DNA of 64,000 nt. Origin: a bacterium (lineage in GTDB: Bacteria; Patescibacteriota; Minisyncoccia; UBA6257; GWB1-50-10). The stretch spans positions 5,371 to 69,370 of the forward strand of contig JAKAIX010000002.1 in NCBI GenBank assembly GCA_021814165.1, read 5' to 3'. Shown one piece after another: positions 11,104 to 30,423 of the stretch. Every line of letters begins with the position of its first letter. The stretch's first letter is position 1. The translations under genes and the position numbers were made by a program. Under the pieces are notes generated by a model. The model ran no database searches. It saw nothing but the letters and a program-made list of their open reading frames with translations, and was not told where the DNA came from.

Positions 11104-11107
11104 GGAT

Positions 11108-13303: not shown

Positions 13304-13309
13304 AATGTG

Positions 13310-14044: not shown

Positions 14045-14056
14045 ATCACTATTTTA

Positions 14057-15112
14057 TTATTTTGACATTGTACGATGACCTTTCCATAAATCAATATGCG
14101 GGTTAAAAACCCCGGTTCTTTTTCTCACCCTGTCGATCCATTCCCTATTATCGAGATACCACCGGATGGTAGCGGAAAACGCCTCGCGAAAATGCGTTGT
14201 AGGCCTCCAACCGAGTTCTTTTTTTATCTTCGACGCATCAATCGCGTATCGCCTGTCGTGCCCCGGGCGGTCTTTCACAAACTCGATCCATGACCGGTCG
14301 CGCTTGAACATGCGAAGGATGAGATCCGCGATTTCAAGGTTGCTCATCTCGTTATCGGCACCGATGTTATATACCTCCCCCGCCTTTCCTCTGAAAAGGC
14401 AGAGCCGCAGCGCTTCGCAATGGTCCAGCACGTAGATCCAGTCCCGCACGTTTTTCCCGTCGCCGTACATCGGGAGTTTCTTTCCTTCAATCATCCGCAA
14501 CACGAAAAAAGGAATGAGTTTTTCCGGGTACTGATACGGCCCGTAATTATTCGAGCAGTGCGTAACGACGACCGGCACTCCGAACGTGTTGTGATACGAC
14601 CGGCAAAGCATGTCACCGCCCGCTTTTGTCGCGGCGTACGGAACGTTCGGCGCAAACGCGGTCGTTTCCTTGAATTCCGATCGGGAACCGAGCGACAAGC
14701 TCCCGTACACTTCGTCCGTCGAAACCTGCACGTACTTTTCCACCCCCGGCATCGACTTTACCGCCTCGAGAATATTAAATACCCCCGCGACATTCGTGCT
14801 AATAAACTCTTTCGCGCCGACATGGATACTTCTGTCGACATGCGTCTCCGCCGCAAAATTAATGACGTGCGTCGGACGAAATTTCTTAAACGTTGCATCA
14901 ACCGCCGTTTTGTCTGCCACGTCGCCGCGAACGAATTGATAGCGGCGGTCGCGCGCGACGTCTTTCAGGTTATCGAGATTCCCCGAGTAGGTCAGTTTGT
15001 CGAAGTTTGCCACGCGACACCCGGGATGTCGCTTCAGAACGTATCGCACGAAATTCGAGCCAATAAAGCCGGCTCCCCCGAACACGAGTATTTTCACCGT
15101 CGATTTCATCGA
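14057..15112 (-). CDS. rmlB: dTDP-glucose 4,6-dehydratase
   Basis: Start at MKSTVKILVFGGAGFIGSNFV; YxxxK and the rest conserved (VSTDEVYG, CSNNYGPYQYPEKLIP, NVRDWIYVLDHC). Confidence 0.9.
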   Translation of the reverse strand, partial: SMKSTVKILVFGGAGFIGSNFVRYVLKRHPGCRVANFDKLTYSGNLDNLKDVARDRRYQFVRGDVADKTAVDATFKKFRPTHVINFAAETHVDRSIHVGAKEFISTNVAGVFNILEAVKSMPGVEKYVQVSTDEVYGSLSLGSRSEFKETTAFAPNVPYAATKAGGDMLCRSYHNTFGVPVVVTHCSNNYGPYQYPEKLIPFFVLRMIEGKKLPMYGDGKNVRDWIYVLDHCEALRLCLFRGKAGEVYNIGADNEMSNLEIADLILRMFKRDRSWIEFVKDRPGHDRRYAIDASKIKKELGWRPTTHFREAFSATIRWYLDNREWIDRVRKRTGVFNPHIDLWKGHRTMSK

Positions 15113-15153
15113 GTTTTTCTTCCTTAAAAGTATACGTCCGAGGGGGAGGAAGG

Positions 15154-17130
15154 TCAAAAAACGCTTTTCTTTTCTACAAAATCGGCAACCGCGGCTGCCG
15201 CACGCTCCGCGGCGTTCCCGTCGAGTGCGGTCCCGTAACGGACGAGAAACTCATTATTCGAACAGTCCGCGGAATATGTCTTCTTCTCAAGCCATTGCAA
15301 CACAGAATTCATAAGAACATCGGGATCGTCGGCGCATACCGCTCGTTTGTAAAGCAGCCGCTTCGCGTCCTCGGAGAGACCGAGATTTTTCGTAAGGCAG
15401 AACACCGGCACCGGGTACGTAACCGCCTGTATCACGGTCGTGCTCGGCATGTCGACGATAATCGCATCCGCGCAGGAAAAAAGATCCATCGTACCGACGC
15501 TCGATCTGATCTCAACTATCCCCTTCGATGCGAACGAATGTACATAGCGGTCAAGTCCCGATACGGCGTATGACCGTGTCGGATGGAGTTTCACTATCTT
15601 CGTTCCCCGCATTTCCGCAAGCCGTCCGATGATCGTTCGCTGCGCGTCATAAATGGAATTGTCGGACCACGGCACCGAATTGAAGGGGTATGCGTGGCTC
15701 AGATAATACATCGTGGTCGCATACACGATGCAAGGGCGTGGCGCATTCGTAACTCCCGCGCGGACGAGGGTTGCGTTCATGTCGACGGCTTCGCGCATTG
15801 CGCCGCTCCGCAACACATCGATACTCGCCGAACCCACGACTTTTAGCTCTTTCTTCAAGCCGAGCCCCTGAAGAGCTCTCCTGCGGTTCTCTTCCGATCC
15901 CTCGGCCCAATCCAGAAAGAGATCGGCTGCAGCCGCGTCATCGAGGGTCAACGACCCGATCGGCTGGTAATTCAGGTCGCCGTGCTGCCAACCGATTACC
16001 GGAATTGAGAGATCCTGTGCGGCTTTCGCGATACTTTTTGCGATGGGCGTCGGCGCGATCGAGAAAAGGAGCGCGCGGATTTTTTTCTTCCGGAAGAATT
16101 TCCGCGTCCTATCGTATGCGTGAAGCGACGCGGGCACGATCATGTGCAAAAAGAAGGAGATTCTCCCCCGGAAAAACGGAAAAAGGCAAAGGTCGCCGTC
16201 ACTCATGCTTTTTCGGAACGACGGAGACGTTTCGAGTTCTTTTAATAACGTTTCAAAGATACCGGCGTAGGAGGAACCGCACGACCATCGTTCCAGAGTT
16301 CCTTCGATCTGCCCCGATACCGAGTATCCTTTCCGGAAGAGCGCCTGGCCGGCAAAATTCCAATCATAGCCGCCCGAGAGGAGAATGACCGGCCTCGAAC
16401 GCAGCTGCTTCCGGAAAAGACGCACGGCGCGGGAAAATGACGTCGATCGGGCGATATTCACGAAATAAAAGAGTTGGGGGGATTTCTGGACTAGTTTTCT
16501 TAGAAACGAAAGGGAATCCGATTTTGACAAACGTCGGGAAGAAACGGTTTCCGAACCGGGATTCGTAATCTTCACCGTTTCGGAAGGCGCGAGGAGCGGG
16601 AGTATTTTCGAAAAAAGATTTTCACGGGGATTCCACAGCGACCCTTCGTCGGCACGACGCGCCTGAACGAGCGCGCCGCATGAATCGGAGAAATAACCCA
16701 CCGCGTCCGGCAGTTCCCGTGCAATGATGTTCCTCGCCTGGAACAAAACGGTCCCCAGCGAGAGAAAATTCGCGGTAAACGCGTTCAATCCGTACCACGC
16801 GAGCCGAAGCCCGCGTTCGCGGATCGGGGGGAGTTTTTCCGAAAGCGAAGAATCTATTTCCCGTACCGCGGCGATACATTGCTTCTCCAATCCTTCGGAA
16901 TACGAGGAAAGCTCATTGGATTCGTAGTACTCTTCGGGAATACGATACGAAAATTTCGCGGCATCGAACACGAATCGCGGTTCGACCGACGTCGGTATCA
17001 CAATGCACTTGTTCGCCGATATCGAGTCGCGCCTTGCGAGGATTTCCTTCGCGTGCGCCTCGGTGTGGGCAAAAAGAAGAAGTTTTCCTTCTCTCGATAA
17101 AAACTCCTGGAGATCGACGTCGTTATTCAT
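15154..17130 (-). CDS. large hypothetical GT-B-like protein with a C-terminal HP motif (candidate CMP-nonulosonate / capsule-type glycosyl- or glycerophospho-transferase)
   Basis: 658 aa. The C-terminal region IVKLHPTRSY..DAIIVDMPSTT resembles the HP motif of TagF, KpsS and sialyltransferase-like GT-B enzymes. Assignment is by motif only. Confidence 0.35.
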   Translation of the reverse strand: MNNDVDLQEFLSREGKLLLFAHTEAHAKEILARRDSISANKCIVIPTSVEPRFVFDAAKFSYRIPEEYYESNELSSYSEGLEKQCIAAVREIDSSLSEKLPPIRERGLRLAWYGLNAFTANFLSLGTVLFQARNIIARELPDAVGYFSDSCGALVQARRADEGSLWNPRENLFSKILPLLAPSETVKITNPGSETVSSRRLSKSDSLSFLRKLVQKSPQLFYFVNIARSTSFSRAVRLFRKQLRSRPVILLSGGYDWNFAGQALFRKGYSVSGQIEGTLERWSCGSSYAGIFETLLKELETSPSFRKSMSDGDLCLFPFFRGRISFFLHMIVPASLHAYDRTRKFFRKKKIRALLFSIAPTPIAKSIAKAAQDLSIPVIGWQHGDLNYQPIGSLTLDDAAAADLFLDWAEGSEENRRRALQGLGLKKELKVVGSASIDVLRSGAMREAVDMNATLVRAGVTNAPRPCIVYATTMYYLSHAYPFNSVPWSDNSIYDAQRTIIGRLAEMRGTKIVKLHPTRSYAVSGLDRYVHSFASKGIVEIRSSVGTMDLFSCADAIIVDMPSTTVIQAVTYPVPVFCLTKNLGLSEDAKRLLYKRAVCADDPDVLMNSVLQWLEKKTYSADCSNNEFLVRYGTALDGNAAERAAAAVADFVEKKSVF

Positions 17131-17154
17131 TGATCGGGAAAATACAACGGGAAT

Positions 17155-17940
17155 CTATTTTTCCGCAACGCCAAGAACCATAAGTTCGACGGCCCATCTG
17201 AAAAATTTGATGCCCGTAAAACGGGAAAACGCGCGGGCGGCTGGAGTGGAGAAGAAAATTCTCAGGAACGCGGCAATGCCTTTTATCGGCGGAAATTTCC
17301 ACGCGACCGGCAGCTGATGAAATTTCTCCGCATGGACGTTCTTGAATCCGTGCATCGCGAAGGTGTCGGCAAGAGACGTTGTGTCGTACGGACGGCAGTG
17401 CGTAGGATCTTCATAAAATACCTTCATCTGGCTCACCCAATCGGGAGTGAGAACCACTACCTTCCCGCCCGGTTTCAGCACGCGATAGGTTTCCTTCATG
17501 AGATGCGCCGCCGAGTAAAAATGTTCAATCACCGATTTGTGATACACCACGTCGAACGTATTGTCTTCAAAGGGAAACCGTTCCGATTCAAGGTTTGTCT
17601 TCTTGAGTTCCACTTGAGACGAGAGCGCTGTGTCGAGTTCCTTATCGATACCGGAACACCGAAACCCGAGATTCTTGAATGCGAGAAGAAAATCGCCTCT
17701 CCCGCACCCAACCTCGAGGAGGGTTCCGTTCTTTTTGAGAGAAAAACGACCGGATAAGTATCCGGCGAGTTTCGCGGGATAGCTCGTTTTCGGAGTTCTT
17801 TCCTCGTTATATACCACCTTCAGATAGTCGGTGCTCATATAAGACCAGAGTAACTTTTTATGGGGAAAATAGGAAGTGGCTGAGGGAAACCATATAAAAA
17901 CTCCCCGCCATAAAACGCGGCGGGGAGATATACGCTTCAT
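17155..17940 (-). CDS. class I SAM-dependent methyltransferase
   Basis: LLEVGCGRGDFL (motif I) and VLKPGGKVVVL. The N-terminal 34 aa look non-native; an alternative start is M35 at 17838. Confidence 0.7.
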   Translation of the reverse strand: MKRISPRRVLWRGVFIWFPSATSYFPHKKLLWSYMSTDYLKVVYNEERTPKTSYPAKLAGYLSGRFSLKKNGTLLEVGCGRGDFLLAFKNLGFRCSGIDKELDTALSSQVELKKTNLESERFPFEDNTFDVVYHKSVIEHFYSAAHLMKETYRVLKPGGKVVVLTPDWVSQMKVFYEDPTHCRPYDTTSLADTFAMHGFKNVHAEKFHQLPVAWKFPPIKGIAAFLRIFFSTPAARAFSRFTGIKFFRWAVELMVLGVAEK

Positions 17941-17946
17941 TAAGAG

Positions 17947-18816
17947 TTACTTTCTCCTGAGTTTCTGTTTTATGGGGATCTCGCTCTCGTAAACCTTCTT
18001 TACTCCGTCTCCAAGGGAAGACTCGAGCGCGCGGATATCGTTCACTATTCTCTCAAATCCCTGTCGCTCGACGGAGGCGGCCTGATCGCTCCCCCACATC
18101 GCCCGATCAAGGGTGATGTGACGTTCAACGAGACACGCGCCGAACGCTACCGATCCGGTCGTCGGAATCAACCCGACTTCGTGGCCCGAATATCCGACAG
18201 GTACCTCGTACCGCGAGCGCAGGAAAGGAATAACCCGGATATTCAGCTCCTCGAGTTTCGAAGGATACGTACTTGTCGCATGAAGTACTATCAAGTCGTC
18301 TTTTCCGAGTACCTCAACCGCATGATCGATTTCTTCAACCGTACTCATGCCCGTCGAGAGAATTACCGGTTTCCCTTTCGATCTGATGTGGCGCAGAAGA
18401 CCGTCATCCGTGAGAGATGCCGAGGCAATTTTATAGCAAGGCACGTTGAATTTCTCCAAAAAATCGACGCTCGCTTCGTCCCACGGAGAAGCAAACCAGA
18501 TGATTCCTTTTTCCTTGCAATAGCGATCTATTTCTTTGTATGCGTCCTCGCCGAACTCCAACCCGCGTTTCAAATCGCCGTTTGTGGGACCAAACGGATT
18601 CTCTCGCGGTTTCGCGAGCTCTTCAGGCGTATAAACGACGTCAACCGTGCGTTTCTGGAACTTCACCGCGTCGCATCCGGTAGCCACCGCGGTATCGATG
18701 AGTTTTTTTGCGATGTCTATATCACCATTGTGATTAATACCGATCTCCGCCACGACGAAAGTCGGGCATCCGTCTCCTACCAGTTTATTGCCGATTTTTA
18801 CCGTTTTTTTATCCAT
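17947..18816 (-). CDS. NeuB-family nonulosonic acid (sialic/pseudaminic/legionaminic/KDN-type) synthase
   Basis: FVVAEIGINHNGDIDIAKKLIDTA..CDAVKFQKR are NeuB TIM-barrel hallmarks; 289 aa without the antifreeze-like C-terminal domain. Confidence 0.85.
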   Translation of the reverse strand: MDKKTVKIGNKLVGDGCPTFVVAEIGINHNGDIDIAKKLIDTAVATGCDAVKFQKRTVDVVYTPEELAKPRENPFGPTNGDLKRGLEFGEDAYKEIDRYCKEKGIIWFASPWDEASVDFLEKFNVPCYKIASASLTDDGLLRHIRSKGKPVILSTGMSTVEEIDHAVEVLGKDDLIVLHATSTYPSKLEELNIRVIPFLRSRYEVPVGYSGHEVGLIPTTGSVAFGACLVERHITLDRAMWGSDQAASVERQGFERIVNDIRALESSLGDGVKKVYESEIPIKQKLRRK

Positions 18817-18871
18817 AGTGTTATATCTTCGGGCGACAATTCATTTATTCACGAAACGATATCGAAGTCAA

Positions 18872-19444
18872 CTATGCGAAAAGTTCTTTCTCTACGAGTT
18901 CGCAGATTATATGCCCCGCGGTGATATGAGCTTCCTGGATCCGCGGCGTATTTGTCGAAGGAATCAAAAGAAGAATATCCGCTTCCCCCTTGAGTTTCCC
19001 TCCGGTCTCTCCCGTAAACGCGATCGTCACCGCACCGAGCGAGCGGGCTTTTTTGATTCCGCGGATCACGTTTTCGGCATTTCCGCTCGTGCTTATGCCG
19101 ATTACGACGTCTTCTTTTGTCACAATCCCTTCCACTTGACGCTCAAAAACCGCACCGTAATCGTAATCGTTTCCTATCGCGGTCAGAATCGAGGTGTTCG
19201 TGGTAAGTGCGAAAGCGGGCAAACTCTTTCGTTCGATTTTGAATCGCCCGGCGAGTTCCGCGGCAATATGCTGGGCATCGGCGGCGCTGCCTCCGTTTCC
19301 GAAAATAACGAGTTTGCCTCCCTTCCGATACGACCCGACGATTGAGCTCGTTATCTCCGCGATGACGGAAACGCAAAGGGATGAGACTTTCCTCATCGTC
19401 TCCTCGTGCTCTTGTAGTCGTTCATTGATGTTTTCTTCTTCCAT
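18872..19444 (-). CDS. SIS-domain sugar-phosphate isomerase, GmhA-like (sedoheptulose-7-P isomerase family)
   Basis: 190 aa; GNGGSAADAQH and ISTSGN are canonical GmhA/SIS motifs. Confidence 0.75.
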   Translation of the reverse strand: MEEENINERLQEHEETMRKVSSLCVSVIAEITSSIVGSYRKGGKLVIFGNGGSAADAQHIAAELAGRFKIERKSLPAFALTTNTSILTAIGNDYDYGAVFERQVEGIVTKEDVVIGISTSGNAENVIRGIKKARSLGAVTIAFTGETGGKLKGEADILLLIPSTNTPRIQEAHITAGHIICELVEKELFA

Positions 19445-19447
19445 ATA

Positions 19448-19930
19448 CTAGCCGAGAATAACGTCCGCGACTTCCCTGAATACTCCTTCTCCTCCTTTTG
19501 TCTTTGTTACATAATCCGCGATTTTCCGAACTGCGGGATGCGCATCTTTTGGCGCAATCGCAAAACCGACCCTCTTCATACATTCGATGTCAGTCACGTC
19601 ATTTCCTACAAAACAACTCTTTTTGAGGTCGACCTTACTTTTCTTCGCCACGCTCAAGAGACATTTTAATTTGTCGTCCACGCCGGTAAAACATTTAATC
19701 TTTAATTTCTTACATCGGATTTTTGCGACAGGGTTTCTTTCTTTTGAAATGACTACGCACGGAATTCCTTTTTTCTTGAGCATTCCGAGCCCCAAACCGT
19801 CCGCGCGGGAGCAAAACACGCTTTCCTTTCCGTTCTGATCAACGAGCACGCGATCGTCCGTCATCACGCCATCGAAGTCGGAGAAGATGAAAGCCACGGA
19901 TTTTATTTTTTTGAATGCGTTCCGGCTCAT
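19448..19930 (-). CDS. HAD-IIIA phosphatase, KdsC family (Kdo-8-P / KDN-9-P phosphatase-like)
   Basis: 160 aa; FIFSDFDGVMTDD (HAD motif I) and KdsC-like length and motifs. Confidence 0.8.
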   Translation of the reverse strand: MSRNAFKKIKSVAFIFSDFDGVMTDDRVLVDQNGKESVFCSRADGLGLGMLKKKGIPCVVISKERNPVAKIRCKKLKIKCFTGVDDKLKCLLSVAKKSKVDLKKSCFVGNDVTDIECMKRVGFAIAPKDAHPAVRKIADYVTKTKGGEGVFREVADVILG

Positions 19931-19950
19931 GCCTGTTCTTTGCTCTTTCT

Positions 19951-20934
19951 TTATTTTACACCAACTGACCTCAGAAAATCCTTTATGCCCTGTTTTCTGT
20001 CACAGAGCCTGATAATGCGCTTCATCCCGGCATATTCGCGAGACAGGGACTCGCCATCGGTCCCTTCGGATGCGGAAAAAATGCCTCCCATATGCGAACC
20101 GGTGATGTTTGTTTGAAACGCACGTGTTGTTCCGAGACCCGCTTTTCGCGCGTAATAAACGAGGGTGCGCGGAGAAAAATAGTAGGTATGCGCGTTCTGA
20201 AGCTGGGCCATTCCGAAATATTCGATGTTCGGCACTTCGATATAAAACATCGCCTTCCCGCCTACACGACTTACAAGCTCGCGGAGCGCTTTTACGGGAT
20301 CGAGAAAATGCTCGAGTACGTGAGAAAGAATCACGAGATCAAAACTGCCGCCCTCCACGTCGGCAATCGAACCCGATTTTATATTCATCCCCATCTTCTG
20401 TCCGAGCGCGACGAGAGAATGACTGAAGTCGAGGCCTTCGATGTTCTTTTTATCCCGGAAGAAAGGGTAGAGATTCCATCCTCCTCCGCATCCGATCTCG
20501 AGTACGTTTTTTACGTTCGGATAGTCGAGATTCTTCTTGATGAACTCAAACCGAGTTTTCGAATCTCCGTTACTCTGGGCAAAAAAATTATCGACATCCG
20601 CACCCGAAAAACCGGCTTCATACAGCTTCCGATAGTAATCCGTTTCGTAGAAATTCTTATAGGCGGCGGAGGTCATGCGCGGCATGCTTTGCACAAGACC
20701 GCACGACTTGCACATCACGGTATCCTGGAGGAGGCCGTAACGATCCACCGAGGCGATAAGAGAGAAATCACTGCCGCCGCAAAGACAATCGACGCTTTCA
20801 AAATCAATCTTTTTTTCCAGCACCAGCTTGTTGAACTCATCACGCAAGGAAACCTGTTCTTCCGACATCGGGCAGAAAGAAACTTTTCCTTCAGAAAAAA
20901 TCTTGTTTTTCGTCAGTTTTTCCAGAACTCCCAT
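19951..20934 (-). CDS. class I SAM-dependent methyltransferase with N-terminal Cys-rich (Zn-ribbon-like) region
   Basis: CLCGG..CKSCG then VLEIGCGGGWNL (motif I) and LILSHVLEHF. Confidence 0.7.
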   Translation of the reverse strand: MGVLEKLTKNKIFSEGKVSFCPMSEEQVSLRDEFNKLVLEKKIDFESVDCLCGGSDFSLIASVDRYGLLQDTVMCKSCGLVQSMPRMTSAAYKNFYETDYYRKLYEAGFSGADVDNFFAQSNGDSKTRFEFIKKNLDYPNVKNVLEIGCGGGWNLYPFFRDKKNIEGLDFSHSLVALGQKMGMNIKSGSIADVEGGSFDLVILSHVLEHFLDPVKALRELVSRVGGKAMFYIEVPNIEYFGMAQLQNAHTYYFSPRTLVYYARKAGLGTTRAFQTNITGSHMGGIFSASEGTDGESLSREYAGMKRIIRLCDRKQGIKDFLRSVGVK

Positions 20935-21036
20935 TTTGTTTTTTTTTATTAAGCGGTATCGTTCATTCTAGCGGATTGGTAAAAATATGAAAACGCGACA
21001 ATGATGGAAACTCAGAAAAAATTTTCTTGTTTGTCC

Positions 21037-21987
21037 TTACACTTTCGGCCAAAGAGCCGGATCTACCTGATAAGAATCGTCTATCGCGAGTTCGCGCAGC
21101 GCACGAAGCGCCGCTTCATCCAGGGGACCCGCTTCCACTGCCTCGGCAATCGATTCCAGATGCTCCGGTTGGTTTGTGCCGACGAGCACGGTCGCGATCG
21201 CATCATTCGATATTGCAAAACGAATCGCGAGCGAAGGAAGGTCAGTCCCCAGTTCGCGGGCGATACGTTCCGCCTCGTCCGCGTTCTCTTTGAGTAACGC
21301 AAGCTCGTCGGGCAATTTCTCCCGAAGAGGAGTGAGCGATCCCTTTAAAAACACGGAACGGTTCACGACGCCGATATTTTTTTCCTTCGCGAGCGGTAAG
21401 ACCCGATGAGTCATGCGTTGGTCAAGTATGCTGTGTGCAACTTGAATTACGTCGAAAAAGCCGCTTTCTACGGCGGCGAGAGCATTATCTTCTCCGCGAA
21501 GCGATATGCCGAAATATTCCACTTTTCTCTCGTTGCGAAATTTCTCGAGAATAGCGAGTATTTCTCCCCTCTCGATATCCTCTCTCGTGCCGCCGTGGAG
21601 ATAGAGGAGCGGCAGCGTTGAGAGGCCGAGCTTTGCCAAACTCTCTTCGATCTCGCTCCTCATACGCGCTTCCATCTCGCCAGGTGACAACTTCTCCCCT
21701 TTTTCCAGAAATTGGGCGCATTTCGTACCGACAAGAACTTTCCTATCGTTGAGGATTCCCGATTTCCCGATACGTTCCTCCGAGAGAGAGTAGGCGTGTG
21801 CGGTATCGAAATACGAAATGCCCATCCCTGCGGCGTATTGTAGGAGATTTCTTGCTTCTTCATCGGAAGGGAGATGCCGTTCTCCGATGCCGTAGGTGAA
21901 GCCGATTTCCGCTGTTCCAAGACCCAAAAGGGAGATGTTTCTTCCCGTATGACCGAGTGTCCGCTCCGGTATTTTGTTTTTACTCAT
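21037..21987 (-). CDS. aldo/keto reductase
   Basis: LGHTGRNISLLGLGT..FDTAHAY are AKR family signatures. Confidence 0.75.
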   Translation of the reverse strand: MSKNKIPERTLGHTGRNISLLGLGTAEIGFTYGIGERHLPSDEEARNLLQYAAGMGISYFDTAHAYSLSEERIGKSGILNDRKVLVGTKCAQFLEKGEKLSPGEMEARMRSEIEESLAKLGLSTLPLLYLHGGTREDIERGEILAILEKFRNERKVEYFGISLRGEDNALAAVESGFFDVIQVAHSILDQRMTHRVLPLAKEKNIGVVNRSVFLKGSLTPLREKLPDELALLKENADEAERIARELGTDLPSLAIRFAISNDAIATVLVGTNQPEHLESIAEAVEAGPLDEAALRALRELAIDDSYQVDPALWPKV

Positions 21988-22828
21988 GGAAATATTTTTT
22001 TATATACCGTTCCGTAAACTCCTTGTGCCTCATCACCGTCTCTCTCTCCTTCCCCTCTTCTCCTCGCGCGGACTGCAGGATAAATCCTCCCGCATATTTT
22101 TTTTCCTTGAGTCCGCGGAAGAGACCGTCGAAATCGGCATCTCCGGCCCCGAGCTCGACCGTAGATCCGCCCCGAATCCTGTCTTTTATATGCACGTTCG
22201 AGACAATATCTCCGTAAGCCATAATTTCATCGTAATTATTATAACCGAGTGACGCGCTGTTCCCTGAATCATAGACCACCTTTACACGCGGGCTCCGGGT
22301 GCGTTTCACGAGAGCAAGGAGTCGTTCCGCCGGCAAATCGGTTTCGAGCGCGAGAGTAATGTCTCTTTGTTCCGCCATTTCCAAACATTCTCCGAGAGAT
22401 TCCACGAATAATAATTCTTCTTCGGGGGTTCGTATGGAAGAGTTGTCGAGAAGAGGAATTTCAACGGTCTTCGCGCCTATCCGGCCAGCAACTTCAATCA
22501 ATCGATTCAATACGGCAACATTGGCGTTTCTCACCGGCTCGCTTACCCGGAAAAACGGACTGCGCATAAAATAGTCCGCGCAGATATGGCGGACCCACAC
22601 CCCGTGATGCTCCTGTAATCTTCTGATTTGTGAAACGCCTTCCGGGCTCCAGAGCGGGTTTCTCTCGTGCTGGTCTTCATCAAAAATGAATTCTATTTCA
22701 TCGAGCCCGAGTTCTTCCGCCGAAGCAAATTCACGCTCCCATTCCTCGAAGGGGAAAAATTGAATGCCGCGTCCCGCGGGGGGCACTAACCTCCCTTGCA
22801 TGATACCGATGGGAAATCTCTTTTCCAT
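21980..22828 (-). CDS. sugar phosphate isomerase/epimerase (xylose-isomerase-like TIM barrel)
   Basis: Start at MEKRFPIGIMQGRL; AP-endonuclease-2 / TIM-barrel-like pattern; 8-nt overlap with the AKR gene. Confidence 0.6.
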   Translation of the reverse strand: MEKRFPIGIMQGRLVPPAGRGIQFFPFEEWEREFASAEELGLDEIEFIFDEDQHERNPLWSPEGVSQIRRLQEHHGVWVRHICADYFMRSPFFRVSEPVRNANVAVLNRLIEVAGRIGAKTVEIPLLDNSSIRTPEEELLFVESLGECLEMAEQRDITLALETDLPAERLLALVKRTRSPRVKVVYDSGNSASLGYNNYDEIMAYGDIVSNVHIKDRIRGGSTVELGAGDADFDGLFRGLKEKKYAGGFILQSARGEEGKERETVMRHKEFTERYIKKYFHE

Positions 22829-22833
22829 GCGAT

Positions 22834-23670
22834 CTACCAACACGTCCTTCCTCCGTCTATCACGAGCGTCGCTCCCGTCATGTATGAAGAGGCGTCAGAG
22901 ACAAGAAACAGGACTGCGGCTTTATACTCGTCCTCTTCAGCCATTCGTCCAAGAGGAATGAGGTTTGAAAGTTTCTGCACGAATATCTCGTCGTGATCGC
23001 GATAAACGCCTCCGGGTGCGATGGCATTCACCCGAACTCCGTGTTTTGCCCAGTAGGTCGCACAATACTTCGTAAGACCGATAATTCCGTGTTTCTCGAC
23101 GGAGTAGGTCACGGGTTTCACCGGCTGCTCGTTCTCGGGTATGTTTTCCCGTGCGTAGATTCGTTGGTCCGGCGCAATGACTCCCAAATCCGAAGCAACA
23201 TTCAGAACAACGCCCTTCCCGGCAGAAGCCATATAACCGCCGAACACCTGGCTTGAGAGGAACGCACCCTTGAGTCCGATACGAAGGGACTCTTCCCATT
23301 CGGTTTCATCGAAATATTCGAAACGAGACGCGACCTTCCCTCCTTCTTGGGAAGACGGGTTCGGATTGCGCGCGGCGGCATTAATGAGAATATCGATGCG
23401 GCCGTATCGCTTTATAATTTCTTCCTTCACACTTTCCAACTCCTTCTTAACGGAGACATCAACTTTTGACCAAAACACTTCCCTTCCGTATGTCTTTTTG
23501 AGCGCTTCGGCAACTTCACATAAACTCTTTTCATTCACGTCGAGAAGTACGGGGATTCCTCCCGCATCGAGCGCCGCTTCAGCAAAACCTCTCCCGAGAA
23601 ATCCTGCGCCGCCGGTAATGACGCATACCCTTCCTTCAATCGAGAATTTTTTAAGCGTGTCCTCTTGCAT
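22834..23670 (-). CDS. SDR-family oxidoreductase
   Basis: VCVITGGAGFLGRGFA (TGxxxGxG) and YSVEKHGIIGLTK (YxxxK). Confidence 0.8.
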   Translation of the reverse strand: MQEDTLKKFSIEGRVCVITGGAGFLGRGFAEAALDAGGIPVLLDVNEKSLCEVAEALKKTYGREVFWSKVDVSVKKELESVKEEIIKRYGRIDILINAAARNPNPSSQEGGKVASRFEYFDETEWEESLRIGLKGAFLSSQVFGGYMASAGKGVVLNVASDLGVIAPDQRIYARENIPENEQPVKPVTYSVEKHGIIGLTKYCATYWAKHGVRVNAIAPGGVYRDHDEIFVQKLSNLIPLGRMAEEDEYKAAVLFLVSDASSYMTGATLVIDGGRTCW

Positions 23671-23748
23671 ACCAAGAGTATATTACAACAAATACCCCGG
23701 TACAACCGGTTTGAAGTCGATCGGAAAAAACAGTATTATAACGACATA

Positions 23749-25020
23749 ATGAGAGTACACACGCCTTATCGGGAAATTCGCGAGGATTTTTCTCTCGAGC
23801 GCAACGAACTCTATCAAAAGATCAGCGAGATGGAACCCAATGCGGTCGCGAATACTATTCCCCTCACGTGGGCGAAGGCAAAAGATTTCTCCGTCTTTGA
23901 CGAGAAAGGAAACAAATGGATTGATCTCACGTCCGGAATTTTTGTGACGAACGCAGGACACGCGAATCCGCTCATAAAAGACGCAATAAAACGCCAAGTG
24001 GATTCAGATCTTATCTTCTCCTACAACTATCCGACCGAGATAAAATATCAGTTCATTTCAAAACTTCTCTCAATTTCTCCGCCGTACTTCGACAAGACGA
24101 TCCTTCTTATGTCCGGGTCCGAGGCAGTTGATGCCGGCTACAAACTCATAAAATTCTGGGGCGCAAAACACGGAAAAAAATATATCGTCGCGTTCGGAGG
24201 GGCATATCACGGGAGAGGATTAAGCAACGATCTTGTCTCCGGAAGCAAGAACAAAGCGGAATGGTCGAGGGTAAAGGACGAAGAAGTTATATTTCTTGAC
24301 TTCCCGTATGAGGAAACCGATTCATTCGATCCCTCAAAACTTCCTCCCGCCGATCAAATTGCCGGGTTCGTCTTTGAGACGTTCCAAGGATGGGGTGCGT
24401 GGTTTTATCCGGATCGTTTCATTAAGGACGCGCATGCGTTTGCAAAAAAGCACGGGGCGCTTGTCATGTTTGACGACATGCAGGGAGGATTTTATCGCCT
24501 GGGACCGTTATACGGCTACATGACGTACGGGGAGGAAATCAAGCCCGATATCCTTTGTCTCGGCAAAGGAATTACCTCCTCGCTTCCCCTCTCGGCGGTC
24601 TTAAGCAGGAAAGAGATTGTGGATTTCGATGAAAAGGCAGACCTTCACGGCACGCAATCGGCGAATCCGGTATGTTGCGCCGCGGCGTTAGCTGATATTG
24701 AATTTTTGAGTGATGAGAAACGCAAAAAGGAACGGGAGAAACCAATGGAACTTTTCGAGCGCGAATCAAAAAAATTGACCGAATTCCCCATCGTCAAAAA
24801 GGTAAACGCGCGCGGCATGATTGCGGGAATAATTTTTGAAAACACGGAACCGGCTACCGAGATTGTGAAACGGTGCATCATGAACGGAGTGCTTCCCGTC
24901 TGCACAAACCGAAATTCGATCAAGCTCGCTCCTCCGCTTACCATACCCGAGGACGCGATTCTTGAGGCCTTCGGTGTGATTCGTGACGCGATTATCGAGG
25001 TACAAAAAACCGCTCGTTAA
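23749..25020 (+). CDS. class III (omega) aminotransferase, PLP-dependent
   Basis: Start moved to MRVHTPYREIR (23749) to avoid overlap with the divergent SDR gene. LMSGSEAVDAGYKL and DDMQGGFYRLG motifs. Confidence 0.8.
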   Translation: MRVHTPYREIREDFSLERNELYQKISEMEPNAVANTIPLTWAKAKDFSVFDEKGNKWIDLTSGIFVTNAGHANPLIKDAIKRQVDSDLIFSYNYPTEIKYQFISKLLSISPPYFDKTILLMSGSEAVDAGYKLIKFWGAKHGKKYIVAFGGAYHGRGLSNDLVSGSKNKAEWSRVKDEEVIFLDFPYEETDSFDPSKLPPADQIAGFVFETFQGWGAWFYPDRFIKDAHAFAKKHGALVMFDDMQGGFYRLGPLYGYMTYGEEIKPDILCLGKGITSSLPLSAVLSRKEIVDFDEKADLHGTQSANPVCCAAALADIEFLSDEKRKKEREKPMELFERESKKLTEFPIVKKVNARGMIAGIIFENTEPATEIVKRCIMNGVLPVCTNRNSIKLAPPLTIPEDAILEAFGVIRDAIIEVQKTAR

Positions 25021-25032
25021 CGGGCGGTTTTT
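25003..25032. terminator. bidirectional rho-independent terminator between convergent genes
   Basis: The sequence aaaaaaccgc-tcgttaacgg-gcggtttttt is a GC stem flanked by A and T runs; it overlaps both stop codons. Confidence 0.5.
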
Positions 25033-25781
25033 TATTGGGAAAAGTTTTTCCGGAGAAACTCGTAGATCTCGAAGTTTCCGCTTTTGAGTTTATGAGCGAT
25101 GAAATCGAGATCCTCAATCTTGTCGAGTTCTCCGGTATCGGGCGATACGAACGCGAGAATCTTGTCGCCGTGCAGACGATCTGTTTTCAAGATAAACTCC
25201 GTTTTCAATATATCGACGTACCCGTCCGGCTGGTACACCGGAGGAAACGATTGACGCGGGAGATTGTAGTATTCGGGCCGCGGATCGTTCGGAAACAACC
25301 CCACAAAGAAACCGTTCTCGATTCCGAAAAGTTTATAAGGCGATTCCCGTATCTCGTGCCCCGATCTTAAAGAGGTGGCTTCCTCATTCTTAATCATCTC
25401 TTCTATCGCCCTGTCGACGAGTTTCGGATCGCGAAGCGGAGTTGTGGGACGAAGATGCACGAGATAATCGGGTGTCTTTCCTTCGCGCTCTTCAAACCAC
25501 TTGAGCGCATGCCGGATAAAATCAATGTCGCCCGAAGCATCGGCCGCGAATTCGGCAGGGCGCAAAAAAGGAACTTCCGCCCCGTACTTTTTTGCCGTTT
25601 CCGCTATCTCCTCGCTGTCGGTGCTCACGACAACTCTGTCGATGTTATGTGAGAGCTTCGCTGCCGCGATCGAGAATGCAATCAAAGGAAATCCTCCGAG
25701 ATCGACGATGTTTTTTTTAGGGATTCCCTTCGATCCCCCCCTCGCCGGAATAACCGCGAAAACCGTTTTGTCGTTCAACAT
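25032..25781 (-). CDS. acylneuraminate (CMP-nonulosonate/CMP-Kdo family) cytidylyltransferase
   Basis: AVIPARGGSKGIPKKN is the canonical cytidylyltransferase N-terminus; 249 aa. Confidence 0.8.
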   Translation of the reverse strand: MLNDKTVFAVIPARGGSKGIPKKNIVDLGGFPLIAFSIAAAKLSHNIDRVVVSTDSEEIAETAKKYGAEVPFLRPAEFAADASGDIDFIRHALKWFEEREGKTPDYLVHLRPTTPLRDPKLVDRAIEEMIKNEEATSLRSGHEIRESPYKLFGIENGFFVGLFPNDPRPEYYNLPRQSFPPVYQPDGYVDILKTEFILKTDRLHGDKILAFVSPDTGELDKIEDLDFIAHKLKSGNFEIYEFLRKNFSQ

Positions 25782-25788: not shown

Positions 25789-26295
25789 TTACGCGGTTTT
25801 ACGCCGTTTCCGTCCGCTTTTTTCCATTGAAAATCCCGCCTTTCGCAGCGACTCCGTCACATAAGGGTGGAGTCCCGGAGGAATTTTGGTAAACCACCTG
25901 AATGCATCGTGAAAATCTTCGTTCGCGCGCGGAACGGTCCTGCTCGGTACGCTCACCAGATAGACGGTGCCTATCGTATGGGACGGCGGCCCCTGAAAAC
26001 TATTTTTGAACATCGTCTCCGAGCTCCACAGTTCTTTTTCCACTTTTACCCGGGAGAACCCGGTTTCTTCCCTGACCTTTCGTACAACCGCTTTTTCCCG
26101 AGTCTCGCCTTTTACTATTCGTCCCCCCACAAGCCACCATTTTCCCTTGTCCGGCTCGCGGGTACGCTTTCCGAGAAGGAATGCTTTTCTGTTCACGATC
26201 ACCGCGTCGGCGCACGGGACGGGCATTACCGCAAGAATCTTTCTGTAGAGGGACTCGGGAATAAATTCGTTCTTCATATATATTAAAGGCCTCAC
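25789..26295 (-). CDS. NUDIX hydrolase
   Basis: GGRIVKGETREKAVVRKVREETGF is a Nudix box. Confidence 0.75.
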   Translation of the reverse strand: MRPLIYMKNEFIPESLYRKILAVMPVPCADAVIVNRKAFLLGKRTREPDKGKWWLVGGRIVKGETREKAVVRKVREETGFSRVKVEKELWSSETMFKNSFQGPPSHTIGTVYLVSVPSRTVPRANEDFHDAFRWFTKIPPGLHPYVTESLRKAGFSMEKSGRKRRKTA

Positions 26296-28357: not shown

Positions 28358-28966
28358 TTACGCCGACGATAATGCACTCATTGCTTCTTGCATCTTCTTA
28401 TCACCGGGCCAGATGGAGAGTATTTTTTCCGCTGTTGCGCGCGCATTGTCCTTTTCCCCCGCATTCACATAGAGTTGGAAGAGACCGTAGAGGAACTGGG
28501 GACGATTCGGGCTTAAGACGAGCCCTTTTTGGAACAATGCGAGCGCCATGTCGTAGTCCCGCTTCTCCTTGTAGTTCGCAAAATTCGTCGCGTGGATGCT
28601 TCCGAGTATCACGATTTCCTGCACAAAATTCGAACTCTCGTTCTCTGACTTTGCTACGCGGGAAATCGAATCGGCATATGCGACAAGCGCATCGGCAACT
28701 TGTTGCGGAGGCTTCTGCGCAACGATGCCCCCGATCTGGTTTTCCAGAAACCGTATGTCTTCAGCTTGCCCCACGGGAGAAGCAAAATCAAGCGCTCTGT
28801 TGAATATGTCCATATAACTCGCGACGCTCGTTGCGCTGCTCGATTGACGCATCGCCTGGATAAAGAGCTGGGATTTCCGGAAAGGGAGAATAGCGCCGTA
28901 GATAAACGAGAGGAAAGCGAGGATGATTCCTACGGGAGCTACAATATTTTTTATAATCTTATCCAT
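28358..28966 (-). CDS. membrane-anchored TPR-like protein
   Basis: N-terminal TM helix then TPR-like helical repeats. The first ATG is at 28966; the track ORF start at 28993 is a TTG inside repeat element A. Confidence 0.45.
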   Translation of the reverse strand: MDKIIKNIVAPVGIILAFLSFIYGAILPFRKSQLFIQAMRQSSSATSVASYMDIFNRALDFASPVGQAEDIRFLENQIGGIVAQKPPQQVADALVAYADSISRVAKSENESSNFVQEIVILGSIHATNFANYKEKRDYDMALALFQKGLVLSPNRPQFLYGLFQLYVNAGEKDNARATAEKILSIWPGDKKMQEAMSALSSA

Positions 28967-28969
28967 TGT

Positions 28970-30420: not shown

Positions 30421-30423
30421 AAC

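Follow-up and report, generated by a model that had tools for sequence, protein, structure and literature searches.

The gene cluster analysed here, from a Patescibacteria/CPR organism (a candidate-phyla-radiation bacterium), likely makes a CMP-activated 3-deoxy-2-ulosonic acid, with phosphorylated compounds as intermediates, for attachment to a surface glycan. It lies in a 64,000-nucleotide stretch of DNA, hereafter the window (Table 1), and this reading builds on the identities of the genes, on conserved domains and residues, and on the co-occurrences and fusions observed here. Each gene named was confirmed as an intact ORF at its listed coordinates, and the gene string recurs at 99-100% identity in the NCBI MAG GCA_027423885.1 and in two independent Logan assemblies, which excludes an assembly artefact. 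The set of NeuB-type synthase, KdsC-type phosphatase, SIS isomerase and cytidylyltransferase named in the original prediction is borne out by profile matches at the expected positions, as are its SDR and AKR genes. Its two aminotransferases are confirmed in part: the class-III enzyme lies within the predicted range, but the DegT/PseC-like one lies outside it, in an adjacent dTDP-sugar module.

Table 1 Genes and sequence elements of the cluster and its flanks, in window coordinates
Feature	Position	Strand	Basis or context
GT2	8116-9054	-	dTDP-sugar module
DegT/PseC-like aminotransferase	9030-10187	-	dTDP-sugar module
Methyltransferase	10198-11103	-	dTDP-sugar module
Methyltransferase-APH kinase fusion, 731 aa	11108-13303	-	dTDP-sugar module
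Short RmlA-like protein (NTP_transferase)	13310-14044	-	dTDP-sugar module
RmlB	14057-15157	-	dTDP-sugar module; TIGR01181 455, cut-off 365 (passed)
658-aa GT-B protein, LIC12162/BFO_1060 superfamily, candidate CMP-ulosonate transferase	15154-17130	-	AF2, Foldseek, family profiles
KLHP motif, residues 514-517, C-terminal Rossmann domain of the 658-aa protein	15580-15591	-	Translation
SAM methyltransferase adjoining NeuB, 227 aa as called	17155-17838	-	Sequence matches
Putative SAF-less NeuB-family ulosonate-phosphate synthase, 289 aa, clade II of short family	17947-18816	-	PF03102 E=6e-79
Codons of NeuB residues 66-86, β2-α2 active-site loop	18559-18621	-	All six clade-diagnostic substitutions
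Putative GmhA-type SIS ketose-phosphate/aldose-phosphate isomerase, 190 aa	18872-19444	-	SIS_2; gmhA TIGR00441 194 bits, cut-off 209
Putative KdsC-family (C0 HAD) ulosonate-phosphate phosphatase, 160 aa	19448-19930	-	TIGR01670 114 bits, cut-off 107
Second SAM methyltransferase, 327 aa	19951-20934	-	Sequence match
Aldo/keto reductase (AKR), tailoring candidate	21037-21987	-	PF00248 E=5e-36
AP_endonuc_2 TIM-barrel protein, UlaE-like, candidate sugar-phosphate epimerase	21980-22801	-	PF01261 E=1e-27
SDR oxidoreductase, PtmA/PRK09186-like	22834-23670	-	Profile matches
Class-III (omega-type) aminotransferase	23749-25020	+	PF00202 E=2e-63
CTP_transf_3 cytidylyltransferase, CMP-ulosonate synthetase candidate	25032-25781	-	PF02348 E=3e-22
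NUDIX	25789-26277	-	Flanking glycan-assembly gene
Glyco_trans_1_2	26292-27383	-	Flanking glycan-assembly gene
NAD epimerase	27335-28333	-	Flanking glycan-assembly gene
TPR protein	28358-28993	-	Flanking glycan-assembly gene
Wzy_C protein	29062-30420	-	Flanking glycan-assembly gene
Second Wzy_C protein (flanking glycan-assembly gene), fused to TPR repeats	30541-33051	-	

Synthase, phosphatase and cytidylyltransferase

The window synthase has no SAF domain. It scores far under the equivalog cut-offs of both NeuB (TIGR03569; 261 bits, cut-off 400) and PseI (219 bits, cut-off 340), and identity with either equivalog was rejected. Its metal-binding and catalytic residues are kept, with Ser replacing E134 of NmNeuB, and AF2 predicts a TIM-barrel fold for it (pLDDT 81.5). 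In an NJ tree with 500 bootstraps, the short family to which it belongs was monophyletic in 100% of replicates, and the characterised KDN-9-P synthase BT1714 was its sister in 89%. Scores and phylogeny thus place the homologue outside the NeuB and PseI clades, in keeping with the KDN-9-P-synthase precedent invoked at the outset, although its pairwise identity to BT1714 (34%) is not higher than that to PseI (35%); a short NeuB of Leptospira (6NCS) is 33% identical. Only six columns are diagnostic for the two clades of the short family, and all fall within residues 66-86, where clade I carries Q/W/Y/Y/R/V and clade II, including the window protein, E/F/N/L/K/L. The loop motif reads TY..HR in BT1714, TY..(H/Y)R in clade I and TN..LK in clade II. 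The AF2 model places this segment, at low pLDDT, between strand 50-55 and helix 90-103 on the catalytic face.

The phosphatase is of the KdsC type and not GmhB, as had been predicted: it exceeds the TIGR01670 cut-off, matches no GmhB model among the NCBIfam profiles and carries the full marker set of KDN-9-P phosphatases (E64, R72, K75). Its best PDB match is the Streptomyces-type 3MMZ, followed by BT1713. All HADs of such clusters have Glu56 and Lys/Arg67, like the KDN-9-P phosphatase BT1713, whereas Kdo-8-P phosphatases have Arg56 and Glu67. The cytidylyltransferase scores 129 bits against PseF (TIGR03584; cut-off 206).

Co-occurrence was assessed over 83 short-NeuB loci from more than 10 phyla (47 of clade II, 36 of clade I), with statistics that ignore phylogenetic non-independence and horizontal transfer. 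A KdsC-type HAD lies at most 10 kb from the short NeuB in 70 of these loci, and CTP_transf_3 is present in 51; this type of cluster is widespread across phyla. Fusions join CTP_transf_3 to HAD in 35 cases, HAD to SIS in seven and NeuB to HAD in one, the fused domains being KdsC-type HAD and GmhA-type SIS according to NCBIfam, and KdsC-GmhA fusion proteins adjoin NeuB in other phyla. Between them, these fusions link all four enzymes to a single pathway.

The isomerase and the chain length of the product

The GmhA-like isomerase expected beside the synthase is indeed encoded there, with 49% identity to Burkholderia pseudomallei GmhA (2XBL) in addition to its TIGR00441 score. All cluster SIS proteins tested fall just under the gmhA cut-off (175-198 bits), possibly reflecting a shifted specificity. 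The listed GmhA residues (catalytic Glu/His, Ser/Thr phosphate loop, Zn ligands) are all kept in the window protein except for S124A. An SIS gene is found no further than 10 kb from the short NeuB in 22 of 47 clade II loci, about half of which thus have none at that distance, and in one of 36 clade I loci. Within clade II it is found in 10 of 13 loci from phyla that we take to lack LPS, in 7 of 8 from Myxococcota and in 5 of 26 from other phyla, presumably mostly LPS-bearing. To our knowledge, Patescibacteria/CPR bacteria have no LPS, and it is therefore not obvious what else the host would need GmhA for. As the SIS gene tracks the clade whose NeuB active-site loop is remodelled, the isomerase would appear to feed the synthase.

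Heptose-7-P as a GmhA-supplied substrate, the more unusual option in the original prediction, gains genuine, though indirect, support from the KdsC-GmhA fusions by NeuB, the clade restriction of SIS and the remodelled loop. We know of no NeuB-family enzyme that accepts heptose-7-P, and we advance a ten-carbon product derived from it only tentatively, at somewhat below even odds; it could be an undescribed ten-carbon sugar. The E/R/K markers and the likeness to 3MMZ would be no less compatible with a KDN-like product of nine carbons.

An ordinary nine-carbon KDN-type pathway, in which NeuB would condense Man-6-P or another hexose-6-P with PEP to give a decorated KDN and the SIS protein would be a hexose-phosphate isomerase supplying that substrate or have an unrelated role, seems to us rather unlikely as a whole. 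It draws on BT1714 as the nearest characterised relative of the short family, on the phosphatase, with its complete KDN-9-P-phosphatase markers and its likeness to the Streptomyces protein 3MMZ, and on the SIS scores below the equivalog cut-off; a CPR genome of reduced metabolism might also be without a classical phosphomannose isomerase. Streptomyces makes a Kdn-containing teichulosonic acid. The cluster SCO4873-4882 of Streptomyces is named in PMC13011467. Nevertheless, clade I loci, Streptomyces included, almost all (35 of 36) lack an in-cluster isomerase, and the SIS gene accompanies the clade whose loop departs from that of BT1714 and clade I. Moreover, no GmhA-family member acting on hexose phosphates is known to us, and the conserved GmhA residues speak against such a change.

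Far less probable still is that SIS, HAD and an APH-type kinase form a GmhA/HddA/GmhB-like NDP-heptose route merely co-located with a NeuB pathway for non-phosphorylated substrates. A stand-alone APH kinase does lie between SDR and HAD, downstream of SIS, at locus L091, and the 731-aa protein of the window contains an APH domain, with an NTP_transferase also encoded in the window. However, the HAD has carboxylate-binding markers in place of a GmhB match and is fused to the CMP-sugar synthetase or NeuB elsewhere, the APH protein was found again in none of 80 genome loci, neither a GHMP/HldE kinase nor HddC is conserved with the cluster, and the NTP_transferase resembles RmlA and has a genuine RmlB as its partner. 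The block at 8116-15157 is probably a separate, adjacent dTDP-amino-deoxyhexose module with decorations, and it recurs beside LIC12162-like genes at loci L088 and L090.

The 658-aa protein as candidate transferase

Direct searches with the 658-aa protein itself matched nothing in Pfam, NCBIfam or the PDB sequences; only its relatives match transferase models. Its confident AF2 model (pLDDT 81, pTM 0.81) retrieved GT-B proteins in Foldseek, which upholds the predicted fold, and the predicted C-terminal HP-type motif is present as KLHP, with K514, H516 and P517 invariant in 11 close homologues and K514 nearly invariant in 70 distant ones. The family comprises 1716 representatives. Among 70 members, 52 match the LIC12162 model TIGR04331, 40 the BFO_1060 model NF046086 and nine the TagF-like Glyphos_transf (best E=6.5e-9), an overlap that supports its proposal as a transferase. 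Judged by these profiles, the protein belongs to the LIC12162/BFO_1060 nonulosonic-acid-transferase superfamily.

The Glyphos_transf matches could also mean that the protein acts like TagF, transferring a CDP-activated alditol phosphate or phospho-head group, and goes with the neighbouring methyltransferase-kinase module. The same could be read from the L088 homologue, which has an MT-APH/MT/DegT block beside it but NeuB nowhere within 10 kb. We regard this as improbable, given that far more members match the other two models, that homologues directly adjoin the NeuB module (NeuB, SDR or HAD) at loci L056, L089 and L091, and that a CDP-glycerol/CDP-ribitol synthase is absent from the window. 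Furthermore, genetic evidence from Tannerella shows that Pse/Leg transfer requires relatives of BFO_1060 (PMC5420450), and in Herbaspirillum the gene after neuABC belongs to the LIC12162 family (PMC6679464).

Tailoring genes

The AP_endonuc_2 protein has a single PDB sequence match, E. coli UlaE (3CQH, E=3e-13); its gene occurs in 21 of 47 clade II loci and in none of the 36 of clade I. SDR genes are present in 54 of 83 loci, including all that have the AP_endonuc_2 gene. The original prediction had listed neither this UlaE-like gene nor the methyltransferases at 17155-17838 and 19951-20934. Homologues of the former methyltransferase adjoin NeuB at L089 (64% identity) and in Myxococcota loci (36-40%), and those of the latter occur in 15 loci. 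The class-III aminotransferase, the sole plus-strand gene of the cluster, is called at 423 aa in GCA_027423885.1; its L089 homologue (39% identity) adjoins an AKR gene that is 64% identical to that of the window and directly upstream of NeuB. The order AT3-AKR-NeuB-MT-SIS-AP_endonuc_2-SDR-658-like is preserved at L089, with identities of 35-71%. Plain KDN is probably not the end product, since the core is conserved together with five tailoring genes.

Proposed pathway

We propose the following hypothetical route to a CMP-activated ulosonic acid, for which we infer every substrate, the tailoring order and the chain length (C10 versus C9): (i) the GmhA-type SIS protein would isomerise a ketose phosphate to an aldose phosphate of manno configuration, most likely sedoheptulose-7-P to D-glycero-D-manno-heptose-7-P, and stereochemistry may be adjusted by the SDR and the UlaE-like epimerase; (ii) the SAF-less NeuB homologue would condense the aldose phosphate with PEP to a ulosonate omega-phosphate; (iii) the KdsC-type phosphatase would remove the phosphate; (iv) AKR, class-III aminotransferase and the two methyltransferases would tailor the product, where, by analogy with Kdo8N, the freed terminal carbon may be oxidised, aminated and methylated; (v) the CTP_transf_3 enzyme would form the CMP-sugar; and (vi) the 658-aa HP-motif GT-B protein would transfer it.

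Comparison with known systems

The CMP-KDN system of Bacteroides thetaiotaomicron (BT1714, BT1713 and an adjacent cytidylyltransferase) likewise combines NeuB-family, KdsC-family and CTP_transf_3 proteins, and this common set therefore points to a phosphorylated intermediate. BT1713 and the window phosphatase have the Glu56/Arg64/Lys67 markers in common, and a protein of 419 aa that carries a KLHP...D..ST motif is also encoded upstream at the B. thetaiotaomicron locus. In contrast, BT1714 (346 aa) has a SAF domain and a different β2-α2 loop, the two cytidylyltransferases show no detectable BLASTP similarity, and that locus lacks SIS, UlaE-like, SDR, AKR, aminotransferase and methyltransferase genes. 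The Kdo pathway (KdsD-KdsA-KdsC-KdsB) follows the same four-step logic of ketose-phosphate isomerase, PEP aldol condensation, C0-HAD phosphatase and cytidylyltransferase, with the last two superfamilies in common. However, its isomerase is KdsD (SIS and CBS) rather than GmhA-type (SIS_2), its synthase KdsA/DAHP-synthase-like rather than NeuB-family, and its phosphatase has the Kdo-type marker pair. Unlike GmhA of NDP-heptose biosynthesis, which it resembles while scoring below the equivalog cut-off, the window SIS protein is not accompanied by a heptose kinase, GmhB or a heptose-1-P nucleotidyltransferase; in the literature searched, we found no description of GmhA fused to a KdsC-type phosphatase beside NeuB.

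The 658-aa protein has in common with LIC12162 (TIGR04331/PF27859) and BFO_1060 (NF046086) proteins the GT-B fold, the HP motif, TagB/TagF-like similarity and a location next to nonulosonic-acid genes (PMC5420450; PMC6679464). This group includes the Pse/Leg-derivative transferases Tanf_01245 and TFUB4_00887 of Tannerella forsythia (PMC5420450), but the window protein is too divergent for both curated models, and its close subfamily of 11 sequences has no characterised member. In Leptospira interrogans, NeuB is fused to an 'endonuclease-like' C-terminal domain, which Ricaldi et al. (2012; PMC3438082) read as a phosphatase when inferring a phosphorylated, animal-like route; from their wording, this domain may be AP_endonuc_2. 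In the window and 20 other loci, AP_endonuc_2 and NeuB are instead separate neighbouring proteins, and the nearest solved relative of the window protein is a sugar-phosphate 3-epimerase, with a dedicated KdsC phosphatase at hand. In Shewanella Kdo8N synthesis, the oxidase KdnB and the aminotransferase KdnA act on the free ulosonic acid, whose terminal carbinol is oxidised and then transaminated. By analogy, this pair may serve as a model for the AKR and class-III aminotransferase of the window, although the enzyme families differ.

Organisation and genomic setting of the gene cluster

The window holds a glycan-biosynthesis region that forms one long stretch between roughly 2.3 and 33 kb, with nearly all genes on the minus strand. 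From the sequence alone, the original prediction had read a CMP-ulosonic acid pathway at 15154-25781, built on a NeuB-family synthase, a KdsC-family phosphatase, an SIS isomerase and a cytidylyltransferase. These genes are present, and the identical gene string was found at 99-100% identity in the NCBI MAG GCA_027423885.1 as well as in two independent Logan assemblies; its recurrence in three other assemblies indicates that the observation is real. Of the two aminotransferases that had also been counted towards the pathway, the class-III enzyme lies within this range, while the DegT/PseC-like one lies outside it, in an adjacent sugar module. The RmlB of that module scores above its equivalog cut-off, and its block of methyltransferase-APH fusion, methyltransferase and DegT-like genes also occurs beside LIC12162-like genes in two comparison loci (L088 and L090).

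ClpB, HtrA, RNase Y, iPGM, glutamate dehydrogenase and five tRNAs are also encoded in the window, which is therefore chromosomal. The ClpB shares 70-78% identity with proteins assigned to Minisyncoccia, Jorgensenbacteria, Paceibacterota and 'Patescibacteria group', which places the host in the CPR/Patescibacteria. CPR/Patescibacteria organisms have no LPS, and in such a cell, which lacks an outer membrane, the Wzy_C-containing stretch could encode polymerases of the glycan or O-oligosaccharyltransferases that act on proteins. With 775 kb as the longest contig that carries these genes, the roughly 30-kb glycan region takes up a large part of a CPR genome that is very small.

Genes and gene blocks of the window, in order of position
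Feature	Position	Strand	Remark
Second sugar module	8116-15157		RmlA-like short gene, RmlB, 731-aa methyltransferase-APH kinase fusion, methyltransferase, DegT/PseC-like aminotransferase, GT2
DegT/PseC-like aminotransferase	9030-10187		in the second sugar module
658-aa protein	15154-17130	-	without family match
Methyltransferase	17155-17838	-	
NeuB-family synthase	17947-18816	-	289 aa
SIS isomerase	18872-19444	-	
KdsC-family HAD phosphatase	19448-19930	-	
Methyltransferase	19951-20934	-	
Aldo/keto reductase (AKR)	21037-21987	-	
AP_endonuc_2 TIM-barrel protein	21980-22801	-	
SDR	22834-23670	-	
Class-III aminotransferase	23749-25020	+	sole plus-strand gene in 15154-25781
CTP_transf_3 cytidylyltransferase	25032-25781	-	
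Wzy_C-containing stretch	28358-36627		TPR protein, two Wzy_C proteins (O-antigen ligase/polymerase-like; one TPR-fused), 1150-aa protein with peptidoglycan-binding domain
ClpB	38000-40660		

A minimal NeuB homologue with affinity to KDN-9-P synthase

The synthase carries the NeuB domain PF03102 (E=6e-79), and its AF2 model is a TIM barrel. Aligned to N. meningitidis NeuB (NmNeuB), it keeps E24, K52, Q54, K129, S132, S154, S210, H212, E231, H233 and D244, which are metal ligands (among them two His), catalytic residues (Glu25 and Glu234 in the NeuB family) and PEP-binding Lys and Ser residues of that enzyme. The protein stops at residue 289 and has no SAF/antifreeze-like domain, the source of Arg314 at the sugar site in NeuB. 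At the position of NmNeuB Glu134, reported as catalytic, the window synthase has Ser, and 83 SAF-less homologues (the short family) have Ser, Ala, Cys or Thr; the position of Phe112 is always Trp in all of these proteins. A canonical NeuB, PseI or SpsE identity was rejected, the scores of 261 bits against the NeuB equivalog TIGR03569 (cut-off 399.65) and 219 bits against the PseI equivalog TIGR03586 (cut-off 340.25) being far under the cut-offs. Homologues are plentiful and unusually conserved, with 72-77% identity in CPR, Verrucomicrobia, Acidobacteria, Chloroflexi and Desulfobacterota. SAF-less 'environmental' NeuBs, one of them from Streptomyces scabiei, were seen in a published survey that assigned them no function (PMC8208679).

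For comparison with the KDN-9-P synthase BT1714 of Bacteroides thetaiotaomicron, an enzyme type that makes KDN-9-P from Man-6-P and PEP, its sequence was taken from gut-metagenome contigs that encode a protein 100% identical to the KDN-9-P phosphatase BT1713. The adjacent NeuB-family ORF is BT1714, which has 346 aa and includes a SAF domain. Phylogeny, which the original prediction had suggested for placing the synthase, sets it outside NeuB and PseI. The short family was monophyletic in 100% of 500 neighbour-joining (NJ) bootstraps, and BT1714 was its sister in 89% of them, in a tree built without LegI, human NANS or algal KDN-9-P synthase; PseI, SpsE, the Leptospira short NeuB 6NCS or NmNeuB took this place in at most 2%. 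By this tree, BT1714 is the nearest characterised relative of the window synthase. Since the pairwise identity is no more than 34%, similar to that with PseI, the relation is one of affinity and not of membership.

Phosphatase, isomerase and cytidylyltransferase

The HAD protein, read as a KdsC-family phosphatase in the original prediction, belongs to that subfamily by score (114 bits for KdsC/YrbI TIGR01670, cut-off 106.95) and by its cap-less C0-type architecture of about 160 residues (160 aa here). Its top PDB matches are all KdsC-family proteins, the best being 3MMZ (Streptomyces avermitilis), Aquifex AQ2171 (2P9J) and BT1713. D18 and D20 of its DxD nucleophile motif align with D10 and D12 of BT1713, whose residue numbers were verified with the help of 4HGQ, the entry of its E56A mutant. 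Lu et al. are said to have described, in 2009, Glu56, Arg64 and Lys67 as specificity markers of KDN-9-P phosphatase; the window protein has E64, R72 and K75 at these positions. In the Kdo-8-P phosphatases 4UM5 and 2P9J, position 56 is Arg and position 67 is Glu. Glu56 and Lys or Arg at 67 are kept in all 70 cluster-associated HADs from the best 80 of at least 575 short-NeuB loci plus three metagenomic ones. Against the KDN-9-P phosphatase equivalog NF058599, the window protein reaches 111 bits, below the cut-off of 180. A GmhB role was rejected, as the KdsC subfamily cut-off is passed and an HMM search gave no GmhB model among the HAD matches, only a 21-bit histidinol-phosphatase domain match. 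A Kdo-8-P-type pathway was likewise rejected, because the phosphatase markers are of the KDN type and the isomerase is not KdsD-like.

The SIS isomerase is 49% identical to B. pseudomallei GmhA and keeps the catalytic Glu65/His180, Arg69, Asp94, Gln172, the Ser119-Thr120-Ser121 phosphate loop and the Zn ligands, with S124A as the sole change (E. coli numbering, the register of the E. coli sequence having been checked against these residues). Of the 22 other cluster SIS domains, 19 keep the same residues. Against the gmhA equivalog TIGR00441, the window protein scores 194.2 bits, below the cut-off of 209.45, and its fused homologues score 175-198 bits. Three loci (L022, L046 and L070) have a divergent SIS that is encoded on the opposite strand and shows the changes E65D, R69G/N and Q172E; it is unlikely that these proteins can stand in functionally for the GmhA-type partner. 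The cytidylyltransferase reaches 80 bits against PF02348 (gathering score 22.6), and its best equivalog, PseF, scores 129 bits, below the cut-off of 205.7.

Two of these features favour a KDN-like nine-carbon product made from hexose-6-phosphate: the SIS proteins score just under the gmhA cut-off, and the window phosphatase looks like the Streptomyces/KDN type. We rate such a product somewhat below a ten-carbon one for the window pathway, and weigh it below against the distribution of the isomerase.

Gene fusions link four enzymes

A scan of species-representative genomes gave at least 600 pattern matches and at least 575 confirmed short-NeuB loci. The best 80 of these and three metagenomic loci made up a non-redundant set of 83, in which neighbours within 10 kb of the short NeuB were counted from all stop-to-stop ORFs by domain-level BLAST. 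In this set, a KdsC-type HAD was found in 70 loci, an SDR in 54, CTP_transf_3 in 51, SIS in 23 and AP_endonuc_2 in 21. The cytidylyltransferase and the HAD form one fusion protein in 35 of the 83; HAD-SIS fusions occur in seven, from Chloroflexi and Myxococcota, and a NeuB-HAD fusion in one, from Holophagaceae. By NCBIfam, the fused domains are KdsC-type and GmhA-type. That KdsC is fused both to the CMP-sugar synthetase and to the isomerase or synthase suggests that the four enzymes act on one metabolite chain, and the fusions would be hard to explain unless isomerase, synthase, phosphatase and cytidylyltransferase shared it. The chain would run from the isomerase to the synthase, the phosphatase and finally the cytidylyltransferase.

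Other neighbours were also observed. In eight loci of Acidobacteria, Verrucomicrobia and Desulfobacterota (L018, L024, L026, L029, L039, L040, L041 and L064), the NeuB-HAD pair is followed, around 11-13 kb, by a thiamine-diphosphate enzyme of about 600 aa, with genes for a 258-aa nucleotidyltransferase, a 4,6-dehydratase and a DegT-like protein of about 440 aa upstream; this block resembles a branched-chain CDP-sugar (yersiniose-type) module.

A remodelled active-site loop and a possible substrate

The short NeuBs form two groups in the NJ tree. Clade I comprises Anaerolineae, Streptomyces and others, and clade II, which includes the window synthase, has 71% bootstrap support. Monophyly of clade I reached only 36%, so clade II may derive from within clade I. 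All 47 clade II sequences have no SAF domain. Fixed differences between the clades are limited to six alignment columns, all within window residues 66-86, which in the AF2 model form a long low-confidence loop at the catalytic face of the barrel, between strand beta2 and helix alpha2. The loop motif is T-Y-G-E-H-R in BT1714 and T-Y-x-x-Y-R in clade I, which thus have T-Y-x-x-(H/Y)-R in common; this motif is absent from the window synthase and all 47 clade II sequences, which read T-N-G-D-L-K. An 'alpha2beta2' loop, which may not equal the beta2-alpha2 loop here, has been credited with a bias of human NANS towards the phosphorylated substrate (PMC8208679).

SIS lies near the synthase in 22 of 47 clade II loci but in only one of 36 clade I loci, and AP_endonuc_2 in 21 of 47 compared with none of 36 (Fisher p ~1e-6, a value that ignores phylogenetic kinship). 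The subclade that gained the GmhA-type isomerase thus also remodelled the one loop that, in the predicted structure, is the likeliest to recognise the far end of the substrate.

Within clade II, an in-cluster SIS is present in 10 of 13 loci of CPR, Chloroflexi, Actinobacteria and Firmicutes, in seven of eight Myxococcota loci and in five of 26 loci of other phyla. CPR, Chloroflexi, Actinobacteria and Firmicutes are without LPS, and the other clade II phyla besides Myxococcota are mostly LPS-bearing. Such an uneven spread is expected if heptose-7-phosphate is needed and a housekeeping gmhA makes a second copy needless. We tentatively put forward, as a possibility, that the clade II synthase condenses PEP with D-glycero-D-manno-heptose-7-phosphate from the in-cluster GmhA to give a ten-carbon ulosonate. 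Such a reaction would yield 3-deoxy-dec-2-ulosonic acid 10-phosphate ('homo-KDN'), which would then be dephosphorylated, tailored and CMP-activated. We know of no NeuB-family enzyme that uses a heptose phosphate. The probability that the ten-carbon and the nine-carbon product leave over falls to other phosphorylated aldoses, for example one that is first epimerised by the UlaE-like enzyme of the cluster.

Tailoring enzymes

The sole solved sequence relative of that AP_endonuc_2 protein is E. coli UlaE, a sugar-phosphate 3-epimerase. In Leptospira, a NeuB is fused to an 'endonuclease-like' domain that Ricaldi et al. took to be a phosphatase (PMC3438082). For the window protein, a role as an epimerase acting on a sugar phosphate seems more likely, because a dedicated KdsC is already present.

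A metagenomic contig (L089) has the order aminotransferase, AKR, NeuB, methyltransferase, SIS, AP_endonuc_2, SDR and a homologue of the 658-aa protein, at 35-71% identity. This order assigns the AKR, the class-III aminotransferase and the NeuB-adjacent methyltransferase to the pathway, as far as this lineage is concerned. Once the phosphatase has freed the carbinol, oxidation and transamination might follow there, and then methylation, by analogy with Kdo8N biosynthesis, which is the model for carbinol oxidation and transamination; we hold this tailoring scheme with low confidence.

By NCBIfam, the window SDR is PtmA-like. In 27 loci, among them L004, L006, L008, L009, L016 and L019, SDR, cytidylyltransferase and NeuB occur together with a GFO_IDH_MocA oxidoreductase; the window has no such gene, and the AKR stands in its place. 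The pairing of a PtmA-like SDR with Gfo/Idh/MocA recalls PtmA/PtmF of legionaminic-acid loci.

A candidate HP-motif transferase

The 658-aa protein had been singled out in the original prediction as a candidate HP-motif, CMP-sugar-dependent transferase. Direct searches with it against Pfam, NCBIfam (E<=0.001) and PDB sequences gave no match, nor did a 70-sequence profile of its family against PDB sequences. Its AF2 model is confident (pLDDT 81, pTM 0.81), and the top 50 Foldseek matches are all GT-B (best E=1e-9), with UDP-GlcNAc 2-epimerases, MurG, CalG1 and the TagF-like TarL among them. The fold thus consists of two Rossmann domains, the C-terminal one of which carries the HP motif. The WQHGD, YATxMY, KxHP (KLHP in the window) and DxIIxDxxSTT motifs are invariant in the 11 close homologues, four of which (P0125, P0127, P0128 and P0131) carry a PF27859 (LIC12162) match. 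Profile searching yielded 1716 representative relatives, mostly of 600-660 aa. Among 70 profile-detected relatives, 52 matched TIGR04331 (LIC12162 family transferase), 40 NF046086 (BFO_1060 family glycosyltransferase) and nine Glyphos_transf; single members matched polysialyltransferase, Capsule_synth and GT99 models. Tannerella forsythia proteins orthologous to BFO_1060 have HP and D/E-D/E-G motifs and resemble TagB, and when they are deleted the terminal Pse or Leg derivative is lost (PMC5420450). In Herbaspirillum, a LIC12162-family gene follows neuABC (PMC6679464), and homologues of the 658-aa protein directly adjoin NeuB, SDR or HAD in three of our loci (L056, L089 and L091). Predicted fold and family matches thus bear out the original reading, and the assignment as a putative HP-motif transferase is well supported at the level of fold and superfamily; we infer a CMP-ulosonic acid as the donor.

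Two further kinds of protein with HP-type motifs were observed. In Anaerolineae loci of clade I (L054, L057, L061, L072, L080-L082 and L085), a family of about 540 aa, with an LRAHPDE motif and a Capsule_synth (KpsS/KpsC-like) match exactly at the cut-off, is always directly downstream of NeuB; in clade I, this family may correspond to the 658-aa transferase. The KDN locus of B. thetaiotaomicron has, upstream, a 419-aa protein (L093:2848-4107) whose 'LKLHP' and 'DYTST' motifs can be aligned, though not significantly, with the KLHP/DMPST region of the 658-aa window protein.

Significance and relation to known pathways

Sialic-acid-like sugars shape surface recognition by hosts, phages and neighbouring cells, and the characterised routes to them are few (Neu5Ac, Pse, Leg, KDN and Kdo). 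Searches of the literature on NeuB/KdsC/GmhA, deca-/deculosonic acids, and nonulosonic acids with sedoheptulose found no such pathway described. Ten-carbon CMP-ulosonic acids have been seen by mass spectrometry in Magnetospirillum, and the available part of that preprint puts forward no biosynthetic genes for higher-carbon CMP-ulosonic acids (bioRxiv 10.64898/2026.04.20.719630). If the isomerase acts as its residues imply and the ten-carbon product proposed here is correct, sialic-acid-like sugars of ten carbons would have a defined route in CPR, Chloroflexi, Myxococcota, Actinobacteria and others, and the cluster would offer a genetic handle on these unexplained Magnetospirillum compounds. 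With a nine-carbon product, too, there would be a testable subfamily split, consisting of six substitutions and one loop, and a candidate transferase family. An ultra-small CPR bacterium that spends about 30 kb on a predicted acidic surface glycan also bears on the attachment of episymbionts to their hosts.

The window belongs to a large family, with at least 575 confirmed matches among species representatives and no characterised member in the sources searched, in which fusions independently tie GmhA-type and KdsC-type domains to a minimal NeuB. The pathway is widespread, and the independent fusions support it. By its scores, the window pathway is in none of the NeuB, PseI, BT1714, BT1713, GmhA or PseF equivalog groups, since for each of them a curated cut-off or a defining motif is missed; the cut-off of the KdsC subfamily is passed. 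As read from its genes, it nevertheless appears to work like the Bacteroides KDN pathway and to share the step logic of the Kdo pathway, with a NeuB-type enzyme as its synthase.
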